64,000 nucleotides of DNA from Eledone cirrhosa (taxonomy: Eukaryota), in assembly GCA_964016885.1 (NCBI GenBank), contig OZ024746.1, forward strand, positions 90,954,001 to 91,018,000. The letters run 5' to 3'. A model generated the notes under the pieces. The model searched no databases, was not told where the DNA came from, and saw only the letters and a list, made by a program, of their open reading frames with translations. Below are positions 485 to 59,651 of the stretch, one piece after another. Position 1 is the stretch's first letter, and each line of letters begins with the position of its first letter. A program made the position numbers and the translations under genes.

Positions 485-556
485 ATATATTTTATTATAT
501 ATATTTCGGAGGTACTGTGTTGCTTTCTCAGTACGTCCTCATCAGATAAAATATAT
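485..556 (-). ncRNA. Type I hammerhead ribozyme
   Basis: Minus strand: AUAUAUUUUAU-CUGAUGA-GGACGUACUG(loop)CAGUACCUCC-GAAA-UAUAUA-UA^AUAAAAUAUAU; perfect 11-bp stem I, paired stem II, palindromic stem III. Confidence 0.85.
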
Positions 557-631
557 AAATTGATGTCTGACATACCTCAACTGTACTGATGGTTCAATTC
601 CAGTCTTGGCAGTGATTAGTTACAACAAAAC

Positions 632-1132
632 TCAATATTTATATACCATATGTACTAACATGACAAACGGGCATTTAATGCAGTAAATTAGATTTCTGCT
701 TTTGCAGTTCATATTTGCATTTGGGAATATTTTTCCAGTTTTTGTTTTCATATATTGACCGGCGTGTATGGGTTGACATGTGCCACATCGACTATCATTG
801 CATTTAGATACAGTGAATGATTGGTCTTTGTTGTTAAGGTCAAACTTTGCTTTTGTTAGTAATTGCTTCAAATTTTTCTGCTGTCTTTTACTAAGAGTCA
901 AAGATCGATCTGTGATTAAGCCTTTTAATTCATTACTTTGAGCAATGATCGGTAGGTTTGCTTTGGCAGTGTTGAAGATATTCTGGTGACATGGGTTGTG
1001 TGTCATTATAAATGGTATAACCAGTTCTTGGTTTCTTCTTCCTTGGGTTGTCCTAAGTTGTTGTATAGGTATTTTTATAGCCCGCTGTATGCCATTTTCT
1101 ATAAGTAGAGATGGGTATTTTTGTTTGAGCAA
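632..1132 (-). pseudogene. Penelope-like RT C-terminal region, Cys linker and start of GIY-YIG endonuclease (truncated)
   Basis: LKQKYP..LI...I.RA; VIPFIMTHNP; KNLKQLLTKA; KCNDSRCGTC; NCKSRNLIYCIKCP, typical of the PLE linker and GIY-YIG N-terminus; breaks before the YIG motif. Confidence 0.85.
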
Positions 1133-1311
1133 AAATTCTCTTAGTTCTGTTAGGCGTTTGTACCTGGTATTCGTATCTTCTACAATGGTACAAATACGAG
1201 TAACAGGTACAAACGCCTAACAGAACTAAGAGAATTTTTGTTCAAACAAAAATACCTATCTCTACTTATAGAAAATGGCATACAGCGGGCTATAAAAATA
1301 CCTATACAACA

Positions 1312-2172
1312 AGGTATATATGTGTTTTGGTATATATATGTTTTGGCAACTTTTCACGATGTGGCTCAATGGAGAATTAATAAATTAAATAATCAGAGCA
1401 AAATACTATAGAGTAAAGCACGTCCAGAGAATTATTTGATAATATATATACATCATCTCTACTCCCAATCAGCATAATTAACCACACAAAAAAATCAATT
1501 AGACCAGGCTATAAGAATAAAAGGCATCTATGAAGAAACAGTAAATAAATATACCATTGCAGCGTCTTCGCGTCCAACCGCTATAGAATATTTACCCAAC
1601 ATTTCAACAGCACGTGGAAATTAATTAAATATACGGTCAACCACACATAATTAGGTAAAAATTAATGTTAGAAATGCTTATATATACATACCAGGATTAA
1701 ATCACTAAATTCCGACCCTAGGGTTTCGCTCACTTTTGAGATACCTTATTAAGGTTAATACTCGAGTTTTAGAGCTCTTCAGGGGATAAACTCGTTAGTA
1801 ATTTAATCCTGGTATGTATATAAGCATTTCTAACATTCATTTTTACCTAATTATGTATGGTTGACCTATATTTAATTAATTTCCACGTGCTGTTGAAATG
1901 TTGGGTAAATATTCTATAGCGATTGCACGCGAAGACGCCGCAATGGCGTATTTATTTACTGTTTCTTCATAGATGCCTTTTATTCTTATAGCCTGATCTA
2001 ATTGATTTTTTTGTGTGGTTAATTATGCTGATTGGGAGTAGAGATGATGTATATATATTATCAAATAATTCTCTGGACATGCTTTACTCTATAGTATTTC
2101 GCTCTGATTATTTAATTTATTAATTCTTCATTGAGCCACATCGTGAAAAGTTGCCAAAACACATATATACCT
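1312..2172. repeat. ~860-bp fold-back element with long inverted arms
   Basis: Arms ~1312-1708 and 1795-2172 are reverse complements (12 substitutions and 2 small indels over ~370 bp by manual alignment); the spacer holds an HHR. Confidence 0.95.
1709..1787 (-). ncRNA. Type I hammerhead ribozyme at hairpin apex
   Basis: Minus strand: AUCCC-CUGAAGA-GCUC...GAGC-GAAA-CCCUAGGG-UC^GGAAU; GUC triplet, predicted cleavage between 1714 and 1713. Confidence 0.8.
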
Positions 2173-2212
2173 GTGACTTTGTTTAATTGGTGTGTGTGTA
2201 AATATTTATATT

Positions 2213-56040: not shown

Positions 56041-56069
56041 ACGTAACAAAGATAACAAAAGCAGTTGGA

Positions 56070-56545
56070 AATAAATTGATATTTTCCAAAATTCTTGGTT
56101 TCTGTAAACAGCCGTATGAAATCTTGCCGATAGAAAGTGAAATTCTTCAACCAGTATCCCGTAATGAGGTCTGGGCCTAGTGATTCGACATTTTCTGTAG
56201 AGCTGTTTCCAGTATTGACCCATCTATGTCATATTGTTTTGTCTGGACATGTTGGCAGTAGTCCTGTTCCAGTTCTTTTAGCCAGTTAGTTTGTCTGCTG
56301 AATCCGTCATCCGTTTCCCATACAGATCTCCAGTAGCTATCAACCTGTTCTTTTGAAGGGGTGTCATTTACAGAGATTGAGCTTTTGCCACCGAAACTGC
56401 GATAAACAATCTATTTAGCACTTGTTGTTTATGTGCTGTTGACTTATATTTTAGTCTTTCTGTTGTAGCTGTGAGTTGTTGTTTCAACTGGTGTAATTTG
56501 GAGTTCAAAGTTTTAAATTTTGTATCTCCAAATCGTCTCTAACTT
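56070..56545 (-). pseudogene. R4/Dong-like pre-RT region fragment
   Basis: Manual translation YRSF..TPSKEQVDSYWRSVWE..NWL and, after a frameshift, GPDLITGYWLK. Confidence 0.75.
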
Positions 56546-56580
56546 TTTTTTTGTGCATGTATGTATGAATATATGTATAT

Positions 56581-57513
56581 TATCTCTTTCTCTTAATTTC
56601 GAGTATATTTTTTTTGACCGGCCACCTTCCTGGTGGCAAGGTTGTAAAAGAAAAGAAATTGTCATCCCTTGAATCACAAGAATGTTTTGCAAATTTTGAA
56701 GGTGCCATCTATCGCAGCCATTTGTAGACTATGAATTAGGGAGCTGCGCTTTTTGTCCGCAAATCCAAGTTCAGTCATACTTTGGTCCAAGCGGGTTGGT
56801 ATATAACCCGTAGCTCCAATAATGATGGGTATGAAGCTAAAGGTGTATCTTGGATACTGGATTTGTAAAGTCCTCATCAATGGTCCGTAGATGTCCTCCT
56901 TCTCCTGTATTTTTCCGACAACGTTTACATCAAGTGGGCAGCTGATCTCCACAACAGAACACGTTTTCAATGTGTGGTCCCAAACAACAATATCAGGCCG
57001 GTTGTGCTTTAATTTGGTGGCAGTTTTTATTTTCAGGTTCCACCAGTATTCCTTAGTGCCATCTGTCTCAATATATTCTTCCTCGTTTGTTGTTAATTTT
57101 GTTTTCCGAAGTGCGTTCCAGATGGTTCTAGCTATCCCATCGTGTCTCATGGGGAGGTAGTAGCGAGATGACATTCTTTCGCAGCTGGCAACAATGTGGC
57201 TTACATCCTCGATCTTTGTTTTACATAGCCTACATTTATTGTCAGCTGCTGGCCCTCCTCTTTTGTGCAGCAGATATTTGGTAGGGAGTTCTTGTTCCTG
57301 TATTGCATAGAGATATCCCTCAAGGTGTGATGTCATAAACTTGTCGGAACTCCATGCCAGGCTTTTTGAGTGGTTTATCCCCTCTATGGTCTGTGATTTA
57401 CGCCTCAAGTATCCATGCACAACTTTTTCTGTAAATTGGTCAATTTTTTTATCTTGTTTGAACATTGAATAGGATCTTCCAATTTCTCTGGGTGAGAGAT
57501 TTATATCAGGCTT
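56581..57513 (-). mobile_element. R4/Dong-like family A, second 5'-truncated copy
   Basis: ORF 56674-57465 near-identical to 8073-8877; same 3' UTR; (CATA)n flanks. Confidence 0.9.
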
Positions 57514-59583
57514 TTATGTATGTATCTATCTATGTATGTATCTATGTATGTATGTTTGTATGTATGTTTGTATGTATGAATCTGTGTATGTATCTATGTA
57601 TGTTTGTATGTATGTATGTGTGTATGTATGTATCTAGGTAGGTAGGTCAGGTTATCGAAATTAAGTGAAATAACGATAGCAAAATTGTATTGATAAATAA
57701 AATTTATCAATAATGGTTTGGAGTCATCTATTCATAGACATAAAATTTGATTGATGTTAAGCTGGAGTTATTGAAGATCATTTGATATAAAAATAGGCCG
57801 ACCGTGGACATTTTTAAGCTTGGAAGAATTCAAGAATTTTTTTGTTTTGTTTTTGTTTCGTTTCTTTTTATTTATTTATTTATTTATTTGTTAGTAGATA
57901 GTGTGTAGAAAAGAGGTATAAAAGGAGAGAAAGGAGAGAAAAATTAAATAAAAAAGCGAAAGGGGACAAGAGAAAACTCCTCCCCCATGACTGCATCCCA
58001 TGGACAAGATGGCGACGTCGCCGCCGAGAGCAGCCAACAATATCTAATGCATCTGCCATTTAACCTCACGGAGCTCCTACCTCAAGCGAGTTACATTTCT
58101 CCTGAGTTAGAGGGAAATGGCAGTATACAGCATAAAAAAATATCACTCTGGTTTCAGTGAGAAAATATAAGCTACAATCCAGTTTATTTTCATTTTTATT
58201 CTGTATTATGTGTTGCAATGCAAAGAAAATAAGTGTTTTAAAATATCTTCGTCTGCAATGTAGAAACTATTCTCACTGGTAAGTGGGGGAAAAGGAATCA
58301 AATCGACAAACTGAAATCTAAGTTCTATGTGAACTGTACTCTTAACGTATATCTAGCACTTCGTCGGTATATTATATATTCTACAATCCTTGACCTCACT
58401 AGGAATAAAACAATTTCTATACCTTTCATATATATATATATAAATATATATATATATATAAATATATATATATATAAATATAAATATATATATATTTATA
58501 TATATATGGATTTTCGCGAACGCGTATATAGTATTGATAAATTATGTATGTAAACTTCTTCCAGTGTTGGCATGGGGTCGCTACATCTCACACGTAACAG
58601 ACACCTCCATGGCGAACTGACGTTCGTATTATAGCGACATTACTGTTCTTGGCTTTTCAATAAAGCTATCCTGATCACTATCTCAGCGCCCTAAAGCAGT
58701 TCAGCTAATATTTCATCTTGGAAATGATGACAACAAAAGAATGTCGAAGATGGAATCTGACAAGATATCTTGCTTGAAGCTAATAAGATAATAACGAATA
58801 TTCCTGGGTTCGATCAACCTCTCTTTAGAGCAAATAGTAAACTGCAGATATGTAAAGTGATACAAGGTGAGAGATGGTGTAGCCATGAGAGATGAGGTTA
58901 CTCATCAGGGGTTTACAAAATGGAGGACAAGACAACGGTTTCAGAGTTAAACACACTACGGTCAAGTTATAATAATGAATATTCAGAAAAATCAATAGGA
59001 CAATTTTAGTAGGGTGAGCTCTATCATTACAGATTATCGATCAAATAGACCAGATAGAGAAAGTTGTTTTAAGAAAAAAGAATTTGTCGCTCACATAATG
59101 TTAGTTTACCGCATACAAGGTAACTCGTATATTCTTACATATTAATGTAAACACATATATACATACATGTATATACACACACACATGTATATACATACAC
59201 ACATGTATATACACACATACACACACACATCTAAAGACATTCACAAATACACACAAAAACATATACGCACTTAACACATGTACATCATATGTATATATAT
59301 ATATATGTGTGTGTGTATGTATATATACATATGTGTGTGCGTATGTGTATATATACATATATACACACATATATATATATATATATATATATATAGACAT
59401 ATATATATGTGTGTGTGTGTATGTATATATACATATGTGTGTGCGTATGTGTATAAATACATATATACATATATATACATATATACATATATATATATAT
59501 ATATATATATATATATATATATATATATATATATATATATACGATATATTAACAAATGGAAACTATATTTATAAAACCATATT

Positions 59584-59651
59584 TATTTCATTATACATAT
59601 TTCAAGGACACCAAGTCAAAAAATGATGGTGCGCTTTCATCAGATAAAATA
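59584..59651 (-). ncRNA. Type I hammerhead ribozyme, relative of 485-556
   Basis: UAUUUUAU-CUGAUGA-AAGCGCACCA..UGGUGUCCUU-GAAA-UAUGUA-UA^AUGAAAUA. Confidence 0.75.

Follow-up and report, generated by a model that had tools for sequence, protein, structure and literature searches.

Hammerhead motifs in a 64-kb window of the Eledone cirrhosa genome as probable remains of Penelope-like pseudo-LTRs and retrozymes at TA microsatellites

Results

Hammerhead motifs in the window

The window, by which we mean the whole 64-kb stretch of Eledone cirrhosa DNA analysed here, contains six hammerhead motifs in which the CUGANGA, GAAA and UH core bases are intact (6/6), at the places given in a first-pass annotation of the sequence: on the minus strand at 485-556, 1709-1787, 41916-41997 and 59584-59651, and on the plus strand at 26362-26432 and 34732-34777. 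Stem III is a loopless palindrome, which that annotation had claimed for nearly all of them, with G·U pairs within it at 59584. Four of the motifs (485, 26362, 34733 and 59584) have the full type I architecture, with core, three helices and ends in stem I. Each was retained at three scan stringencies, against means of 0.28, 0.07 and 0.03 matches in 100 block-wise dinucleotide shuffles, the comparison that had been proposed as a check; demanding a loopless stem III lowered the shuffle mean to 0.01 or less. At 1709 and 41916 the core bases are likewise intact and one helix in each is flawed, so that the description of six intact-core type I motifs stands for the cores and not for all of the helices. 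Stem I at 1709 consists of two pairs followed by a mismatch; because a 5-pair form occurs in 9/13 pattern-matching loci of this family (15 examined), the damage is a mutation of the window copy. Positions 10.1-11.1 at 41916, at the base of stem II, are C·A, and since the same C·A was present in all 13 matching loci (15 examined), we regard it as a trait of the family.

The six motifs form five sequence clusters, where at least four families had been claimed, and a further family (E) that had been overlooked carries a divergent hammerhead pair at 23949-23998 (plus strand) and ~23670-23719 (minus strand), with one helix mismatch per copy. Rfam hammerhead models gave no match at the gathering score in the window, and among the matches listed by E-value microsatellite-driven ones dominated. 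Predicted folds of single motifs are for the most part not hammerheads, as is to be expected of a loopless stem III, and carry no evidence of activity. By their sequence, the six are real motifs and are predicted to be self-cleaving.

Pseudo-LTRs of Hydra-clade Penelope-like elements

The motif at 485 lies in a 3' pseudo-LTR (pLTR) piece of a Hydra-clade Penelope-like element (PLE), family A1 (443-668, minus strand), which is 84-87% identical to both pLTRs of a tandem copy elsewhere in the genome (L240). This piece has its short 3' end on the (TA)n tract at 400-442, a TATA-like box at 643-637 (minus strand) and, at 613, the common 5' end of short copies; its hammerhead (485-556) combines an 11-bp stem I with a loopless 8-nt palindromic stem III, and the predicted cut falls between 496 and 495. 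The motif at 59584 belongs to a second Hydra-clade family, A3, whose 3' pLTR (59539-59862, minus strand) consists of two arms: the direct arm (59725-59539) reaches the short end, the inverted arm (59725-59862) reaches the long one, and each of these ends lies at (TA)n. A2 (26251-26476, plus strand, flanked by (TA)n) is an A1-like pLTR copy made of an inverted tail piece (26251-26302) and a direct arm (26303-26476), which starts at a 5' site homologous to that of A1 and bears the hammerhead at 26362-26432.

For 485 and 59584, a reading as non-coding hammerhead elements is contradicted by longer copies, in which an ORF ends 1.2-1.4 kb upstream. Among 25 A1 loci picked by their upstream UTR, 13 show a co-oriented Hydra-type endonuclease ~1.2 kb before the hammerhead, and at L240 a pLTR-ORF-pLTR tandem spans 3,790 nt, its tail extending into the ORF start. 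For A3, L309 and L316, both from the blind sample, have the endonuclease 1.3-1.4 kb upstream of the hammerhead, and L343 matches L354 in its UTR. The Hydra motifs of A1 and A3 (RT and C-terminal GIY-YIG, DKT, a CxCX5C linker, CxxC and CxH, with no CCHH) were read in the broken copies L235, L240 and L242 and in L343, so that the assignment is one by motifs and alignment rows; the RVT_1 match of the Hydra ORF is weak (E 0.0022), and the N-terminal region of L240 is frameshifted, the RWK position reading WWRAF in one frame. A hammerhead-bearing pLTR, a tandem arrangement, a tail and (TA)n insertion are all present in both families. Both 485 and 59584 thus represent 3' pseudo-LTRs of autonomous Hydra-clade PLEs, and their status as independent non-coding elements is refuted. 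A2 is 81-84% identical to A1 copies; its own ORF was not found, nor any close copy among the fetched loci, and by this identity 26362 is likely a sister of 485, a Hydra-clade pLTR, rather than a non-coding element.

A stand-alone element of 270 nt had been considered for family A and was dropped, as the longer copies lead into the Hydra ORF; the periods that suggested circularity of the family were scattered and are put down to composite insertions. In 11/16 distinct insertions of short A1 copies an arm starts within ~10 nt of one site, which lies 30 nt after the TATA-like box, and no arms begin farther up; the short copies are without the box itself. The base before this site is C in 17/17 long copies. 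Among the first 100 listed of 309 non-C matches it is G in 48 and T in 43, T being nearly as common as G and often derived from (TA)n, and in roughly half of 12 inspected cases the neighbouring arm supplies the template for the extra G. Many of the short A1 copies are likely to be full-length cDNAs of a short capped RNA transcribed from a promoter inside the pLTR.

The Neptune-type ORF beside the motif at 485

Adjacent to A1 lies a piece of a young Neptune-type PLE ORF (668-1312, minus strand; RT-EN linker and GIY-YIG start), which is cut off at 668, includes an inverted copy at 1178-1312 and is 99% identical to many genome copies. Locus L091 gave RVT_1 and GIY-YIG matches, both below the Pfam cut-off. 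In 16/19 other copies a different hammerhead lies downstream, and the A1 hammerhead occurs in none; a Neptune-type parent of A1 was therefore rejected, and the earlier remark that one hammerhead sits beside a PLE ORF is misleading. With the Neptune protein as query, no true ORF match was found upstream of any sampled motif, a result that misleads as a test of ORF linkage because there is no alignment between Hydra proteins and Neptune ones (E 0.17).

ORF-free families B to E

Family B (unit ~685 nt) is present as a two-armed insertion at 1312-2206 (minus strand), with a direct arm from 1798 to ~1312 and an inverted arm (1795-2206) that terminates at the long 3' end on (TA)n; stem III of its hammerhead (1709-1787) is a 10-nt palindrome. 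Family C (unit 322 nt; 34518-34833, plus strand) has a short inverted arm (34518-34561) and a direct arm (34563-34833) with the hammerhead at 34732-34777, and meets (TA)n ~92 nt after the core, matching neither usual end of the family. Family D (unit 532 nt; 41862-42431, minus strand) comprises 1.07 units with the short 3' end on the (TA)n tract at 41512-41866 and the hammerhead at 41916-41997. Family E (unit 435-449 nt) forms a two-armed insertion at 23502-24076, with no strand assigned, whose divergent hammerhead cores at 23711 (minus strand) and 23957 (plus strand) have A·A at 10.1-11.1.

These units are arranged head-to-tail, with one type I hammerhead each, and are non-coding (longest ATG ORFs, 28-60 aa). 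Natural direct repeats of B, C, D and E have periods of 683, 322, 532 and 435 nt, and within a family the period is equal in independent loci on different contigs; after the long end, the sequence continues into that preceding the hammerhead. An upstream endonuclease was found in 0/8, 0/16, 0/26 and 0/14 members of the B, C, D and E clusters. On these sequence grounds the motifs at 1709, 34733, 41916 and 23957 are non-LTR retrozymes, which bears out the view that part of the hammerhead population is non-coding. Independence from PLE ORFs, which had been claimed for all motifs but one, applies to 1709, 34733 and 41916 and fails for 485, 59584 and, in all likelihood, 26362. No helper or parent PLE of B-E was found among 22 PLE 3' regions, comparison of which with seven monomers gave four short matches (E 0.01-0.04), all for one other family.

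Fifteen loci were read per family, out of 248, 3,236, 1,478 and 738 first-look candidates for B, C, D and E. Two complete tandem hammerheads, the criterion of Li et al. for active copies (bioRxiv 10.64898/2026.07.22.740005), were found in D (L059 and L061), and a direct repeat spans the hammerhead region at one E locus (L073); the B and C loci that were read contain partial repeats, and two tandem hammerheads were seen at none of them. A tandem array of five units is present at L311. Comparing the inserted core with its flanks gave 3/209 versus 84/2,768 (p = 0.28; one misaligned row of 20 dropped), and many copies may be decaying, since the core is not clearly better kept. On contigs X1-X3, family D and the TA junction are present with fixed differences from locus L059.

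An snRNA-type promoter of the newt satellite 2 type had been considered for the retrozymes, following octamer motifs in C and E and what we take to be a likeness to the insect PSE. It was abandoned for want of shared octamer/PSE support: 22 comparisons gave a single p = 0.035, as chance allows, and the 500 nt upstream of the host U2 hold no octamer.

Two fixed 3' ends at (TA)n

Every family ends at (TA)n at two fixed points. Mapped by alignment and expressed as distance from the core in 8-nt bins, these lie at +104/+200 for A, +376/+480 for B, +136/+184 for C, +128/+240 for D and +176/+208 for E. Two-armed insertions combine one short with one long end in 25/26 retrozyme cases (B 5/5, C 3/3, D 10/10, E 7/8), and in 32/36 and 18/20 cases in the pLTR families A and A3. 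The composite stretch 443-2206 of the window, too, shows a single short end, a single long end and no internal TA run. Copies span the predicted cut site, with 5' ends within 3 nt of it in 1/107 (A), 0/69 (A3), 0/20 (B), 0/18 (C) and 0/26 (D), family E being left out of this count because its reference contained a TA run; the tendency is inflated because the loci, taken as best matches to the window copies with no random draw, were mostly picked for containing a hammerhead. A PLE tail has been characterised in vitro as the stretch between two RT start sites and called unique to PLEs, and hammerhead cleavage was not needed for insertion (PMC11167929).

Hammerheads across the genome

The blind sample of 1.19 Mb contained 68 hammerhead motifs in 24 clusters, as compared with none in shuffled sequence, so that the large and varied population that had been surmised does exist; a second blind sample covers contigs 1-6. 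The extrapolated genome total is about 170,000 motifs. By the sampling descriptor the window has 5 motifs where about 3.7 are expected, and its density is thus ordinary for this genome. A (TA)5+ tract lies within 250 nt downstream of 56/66 sampled motifs, as compared with 20.5% of random places, and 22/68 motifs could be placed neither with the PLE pLTRs nor with the retrozymes. The density, ~57 motifs per Mb, is about tenfold what the axolotl figures imply (126,247 in ~28 Gb), a rough comparison given the different descriptors. PLE hammerhead ends and retrozymes are both known kinds; the large genome-wide number is the feature of this genome. Nothing suggests that the host benefits from it.

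Discussion

Taking the insertion anatomy together with the family assignments, we think it probable that the six hammerheads are the remains of two kinds of mobile RNA in TA microsatellites, namely Hydra-clade PLE pLTRs and retrozymes copied by PLEs. That a Penelope-type enzyme copies the retrozymes into DNA is likely because their insertion ends match those of that gene family itself, and the proposed dependence of non-coding families on PLE enzymes appears probable from this tail signature at (TA)n. In the mechanism we envisage, the PLE endonuclease would nick both strands of (TA)n and the reverse transcriptase would start at two internal RNA sites, so that the two resulting arms diverge from a join between their 5' ends, with an uncut or re-ligated (circular) RNA as the template. 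The loopless palindromic stem III predicts cutting only when two motifs pair, and such cutting would free unit-length RNA from multimers.

A very improbable alternative is that B-E are genuine retrozymes spread by a LINE reverse transcriptase, or by tandem expansion and recombination of DNA at microsatellites: the window has other retrotransposon remains (zf-RVT ORFs), tandem arrays such as L311 exist, and LINEs have been left open as helpers (PMC7229834). Against it, the dispersed, two-armed, (TA)n-bounded insertions with short and long ends match the Hydra pLTR copies of the same genome. We know of no such pattern in LINE-driven SINEs or satellites. Very improbable, too, is that all six are 5'-truncated 3' ends of autonomous PLEs and the ORF-free repeats local rearrangements of them. 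Such an origin does hold for A1 and A3, most solitary animal hammerheads are read as truncated PLEs in PMC4209133, and the 15 loci read per family are few among hundreds to thousands of candidates, but the continuation past the long end, the equal periods at independent loci and the missing upstream endonucleases of B-E are at odds with it. Least credible is that every family, A included, is an independent non-coding element, as the first-pass annotation had it: most A1 copies nearest to that of the window are short with a common 5' end, like non-autonomous retrocopies, but the A1 sequence is the pLTR of ORF-bearing elements, the TATA-like box is absent from its short copies, and no head-to-tail unit of fixed period was seen at any of 20 loci selected through the A1 hammerhead.

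Beyond the origin in PLE pLTRs and PLE-copied retrozymes, we tentatively suggest, while rating it as rather doubtful, a broader scheme in which Hydra and Neptune PLE proteins would serve at least seven circular hammerhead RNAs with two internal starts each, jump between RNAs in one event, making 443-2206 a single insertion of Hydra pLTR, Neptune mRNA and retrozyme B, and also copy short capped pLTR transcripts. If this is true, the helper behind animal retrozymes could be named from the structure of their insertions, which would also supply defined start sites on the RNA for testing.

A1 and A3 share with the Hydra clade of C-terminal-endonuclease PLEs, as described in PMC8557442, the DKT, CxCX5C linker, CxxC and CxH motifs without CCHH, the 3'-end hammerhead, (TA)n insertion and tandem or inverted copies with a one-sided tail. 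They differ in unit size (3.8 kb versus <3 kb), in having 3' UTRs of 1.2-1.4 kb and in tails of ~96-104 nt versus 30-40 bp as given for PLEs. The hammerhead of Hydra-1_Obim from Octopus bimaculoides differs from those of A1 and A3, which marks them as other families, and few families of the clade are described in that source, whereas Hydra endonuclease pieces occur here in 11/79 blind stretches. The Poseidon element of Anolis carolinensis belongs to a different PLE clade and the RNAs assayed in that study were autonomous only; shared with it are two RT starts bounding the tail, AT-rich targets, cutting and extension of both DNA strands and an uncut RNA template (PMC11167929).

Like the metazoan non-LTR retrozymes in the accounts of PMC7229834 and bioRxiv 10.64898/2026.07.22.740005, B-E are head-to-tail repeats of an ORF-free unit that holds a single type I hammerhead; GC is below 50%, no LTR, PBS or PPT was seen and autonomous PLEs occur alongside. 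Their unit sizes fall within the range that Li et al. 2026 give (51-972 bp). They depart from these accounts in mostly comprising one or two units, in being two-armed at (TA)n with PLE-type tails, in a longer loopless stem III palindrome (6-10 nt), in the absence of a 10.1-11.1 pair in D and E, and in that no pLTR parent was found. As candidates for the enzyme behind animal retrozyme mobility, PLEs were proposed in 2020 (PMC7229834), and the 2026 preprint backs a PLE helper by co-occurrence and pLTR phylogeny (bioRxiv 10.64898/2026.07.22.740005). The ORF-free units here bear the two-start tail signature at (TA)n targets that they share with the Hydra elements nearby, and the mapped start sites enable a direct in vitro test of such a helper.

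The motifs resemble the minimal PLE hammerheads of PMC4209133 (Lunse et al. 2017, via the review PMC6765202) in having a palindrome in the stem III region, in being predicted to fold as dimers, in the many families found in one genome and in opposite-strand pairs 100-700 bp apart. In those hammerheads helix III is minimal or missing and G10.1-C11.1 is strongly conserved, whereas G-C occurs at these positions in only 10/68 blind-sample motifs. The positions are unpaired in 31/68 (among them 18 U·U, 5 C·A and 4 A·A) and paired as U-A in 4 and G·U in 4; a U·U mismatch at 10.1-11.1 is described for axolotl HHR_Amex2. This natural variety in stem II offers hammerhead biochemistry a large stock of variants that can be used directly.

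Hammerhead motifs in the window and across the genome

All six hammerhead cores that the first-pass annotation had placed in the window (36% GC, with many microsatellites) were found there, and a descriptor scan recovered four of them as complete type I motifs (485-556, 26362-26432, 34732-34777 and 59584-59651) compared with 0.03-0.28 per shuffled window (100 shuffles). Base composition, together with the resemblance of the Hydra elements to published octopus ones, suggests a probably octopus-like host. A search of the window against Rfam gave zero matches at the gathering score. 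Stem I of the 1709 motif is mutated in the window copy; five pairs are present in 9/13 matching family loci. At 41916, the base of stem II carries a C·A in 13/13 matching loci (15 examined). An additional, divergent hammerhead pair occurs at 23711 and 23957 (family E), with an A·A at the same place in 15/15 loci. Computed folding indicates that 5/6 stem III palindromes cannot close a hairpin and that stem III pairs intermolecularly with energies of -2.2 to -18.0 kcal/mol, so the window hammerheads are predicted to cleave as dimers.

Scanning 119 stretches of 10 kb, placed blindly at round coordinates, with a sampling descriptor yielded 68 motifs spread over 36 stretches, as opposed to none in 8 shuffles. 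For the 3.0-Gb genome this extrapolates to about 171,000 motifs (bootstrap 111,000-237,000), a lower bound for hammerheads generally because the descriptor leaves out motifs with a shorter stem III, examples of which were seen in the genome. The 68 motifs formed 24 clusters, in keeping with the large and varied population first proposed; the window, with 5 descriptor hits, lies near the 3.7 expected. Stem III was loopless in 59/68 and a perfect palindrome in 46/68, and (TA)5 or longer followed within 250 nt in 56/66 sampled motifs, as compared with 20.5% of random places. Positions 10.1-11.1 held the canonical G-C in only 10/68; entire families were fixed for U·U, C·A or A·A there. In our own tally by cluster, 23 motifs fall in families that include an ORF-linked member, 23 in families of head-to-tail non-coding units, and 22 are unassigned. 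We conclude that these are genuine motifs, forming a mixed population of already known kinds. PLE ends are described as carrying hammerheads in many families and as opposite-strand pairs (PMC4209133), retrozymes have been proposed to use PLEs as helpers (PMC7229834, PMC7761336), and a 2026 preprint reports retrozyme/PLE co-occurrence and a pLTR phylogeny (bioRxiv 10.64898/2026.07.22.740005). Literature searches covering non-subscription papers, partly at the level of listings, gave no description of cephalopod retrozymes or of tails on retrozymes.

The blind sample also held three more tandem families, with periods of 311, about 423 and 467. Two retrozyme arrays were seen at retrieved loci, one of period 311 with four direct units and one inverted (L311:8630-9990), the other of period 467 with an inverted arm (L306:5268-6100).

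Family A hammerheads as PLE ends

One of the six hammerheads had been noted to sit beside a PLE ORF. The ORF piece adjoining the hammerhead at 485 (A1) spans 668-1312 and matches, at 99% identity, a young PLE family that encodes RT and GIY-YIG domains joined by a CX4CxxC linker and is Neptune-like by the description in PMC8557442. Since a different hammerhead lies downstream in 16/19 other retrieved copies of this family, and A1 in 0/19, the adjacency is a fusion. Two A1 copies extend upstream into a pyrimidine-rich UTR, and searching with this UTR gave 25 loci, 13 of which have a same-strand Hydra-type endonuclease about 1.2 kb before the hammerhead. These loci contain the CxCX5C linker and the CxxC, CxH and DKT motifs, by which PMC8557442 defines the Hydra clade. 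One locus (L240) is a complete pLTR-ORF-pLTR tandem whose tail continues into the ORF start; every ORF copy read was broken. For the hammerhead at 59584 (A3), L309 and L316 likewise show linkage to a Hydra endonuclease, as does L343 via the UTR. The hammerhead at 26362 (A2) is 81-84% identical to A1 copies, with no linked ORF seen among the fetched loci. As judged from these sequences, family A represents a PLE end, with A1 and A3 linked to Hydra ORFs. Hydra-1_Obim, in the PMC8557442 supplement, has protein motifs in common with A1 and A3 but a different hammerhead.

The 3’ end of another abundant Hydra family lies at 42793-43180 (+), 81% identical to L115; at several independent loci (L104, L115, L306, L345) this family has the hammerhead-like core CAGAAGA, not CUGANGA. 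A further Hydra family (L123, L131, L340) has only the first half-core at its 3’ end, inside a duplicated UTR stretch. By eye, a short self-complementary pair, ACTC...GAGT, recurs in the tails of about 100 nt in A1, A3 and the L104/L143/L173 family, and is a candidate hairpin for protein binding or RT start.

Families B-E as retrozymes

At independent loci of families B (the 1709 motif), C (34733), D (41916) and E, the sequence after the 3’ end runs into the sequence before the hammerhead, a head-to-tail arrangement with periods of 683, 322, 532 and 435-449, respectively. Their longest ATG-started frames are 28-60 aa, and no endonuclease occurs within 2 kb upstream in any examined member. By sequence organization these families classify as retrozymes; the proposed non-coding population thus stands for B-E and falls away for A1 and A3, which are Hydra PLE ends with a linked ORF. 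Family D is young, its best 42 matches being 98-100% identical over 126 nt. No parent PLE for B-E was found among the PLE 3’ regions compared, and inserted hammerhead cores gave no clear signal of selection.

Core-less fragments also lie at 32571-32758 (+) and 43645-43978, deriving from retrozyme E and from a different tandem hammerhead family whose unit is about 423 nt. An snRNA-type promoter for retrozymes was tested and rejected; U2 snRNA genes form a tandem array with a period of about 2.2 kb elsewhere in the genome (G000:C3:307349256-307453739).

A shared insertion signature

In every family there are two fixed points at which copies meet a microsatellite, the short and long ends, separated by the tail; the units of B and D themselves go on with TA at both. 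Two-armed insertions combined one short and one long end in 25/26 cases for B-E, with a single unclassified end in the exception, and in 50/56 for A and A3, where one insertion was short-short and five had an unclassified end. According to PMC11167929, both strands are cut and extended by purified PLE protein, which begins synthesis at two internal positions of the RNA that match genomic tail boundaries, a feature there called PLE-unique. The one useful addition to the known kinds is this insertion anatomy, which suggests that PLE enzymes act as helpers of the retrozymes. The tail measures about 100-110 nt in B and D, as in the Hydra-linked A1 and A3, but 30-50 nt in C and E; our guess would be that Hydra proteins serve B and D, and proteins of another clade C and E.

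Arms stopped at the predicted cut site in only 1/240 cases (A, A3, B, C, D), a count in which spanning is inflated, the loci being best matches to window copies and mostly hammerhead-containing by selection. This rarity agrees with PMC11167929, in which insertion does not require hammerhead cleavage, and because arms almost never stop there we infer that the template RNA was uncut or re-ligated.

Short A1 copies and a composite at 443-2206

Among 16 distinct A1 insertions, selected by the hammerhead alone, 11 have an arm whose start falls no more than about 10 nt from a single site, itself some 65 nt upstream of the core; no arm extends beyond it. Long A1 copies have this site 30 nt downstream of a TATA-like box, with C as the preceding base in 17/17. 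A non-C base precedes it in 309 exact matches (G 48, T 43 and A 9 among the first 100 listed, by our tally), and 29/30 of those inspected were short copies; there the T often derives from (TA)n, and about half of 12 G could derive from the adjoining arm. We lean towards a capped RNA starting within the pLTR as the probable source of short A1 copies. A comparable hot spot occurs in A3 about 135 nt before the cut site.

Between two TA tracts, a composite at 443-2206 joins a piece of the A1 pLTR, a Neptune piece with an inversion and both B arms. Its junctions overlap by 1-3 nt and lack a long TA run, and as a whole it is bounded by the short end of A1 and the long end of B, a structure that fits template jumping in a single event. 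Equally consistent are deletions that arose later between adjacent insertions. Where two different families adjoin, a TA run separates them in 20/24 cases and is absent in 4/24.

Other repeats

C-terminal pieces of non-LTR retrotransposons occur at 8092-8877 (+), 50691-51509 (+) and 56674-57513 (-), the first and last with zf-RVT; all three resemble restriction-enzyme-like endonuclease LINEs. A PIF1-like helicase fragment at 35838-36695 (-; E 4e-43) is probably a Helitron remnant.
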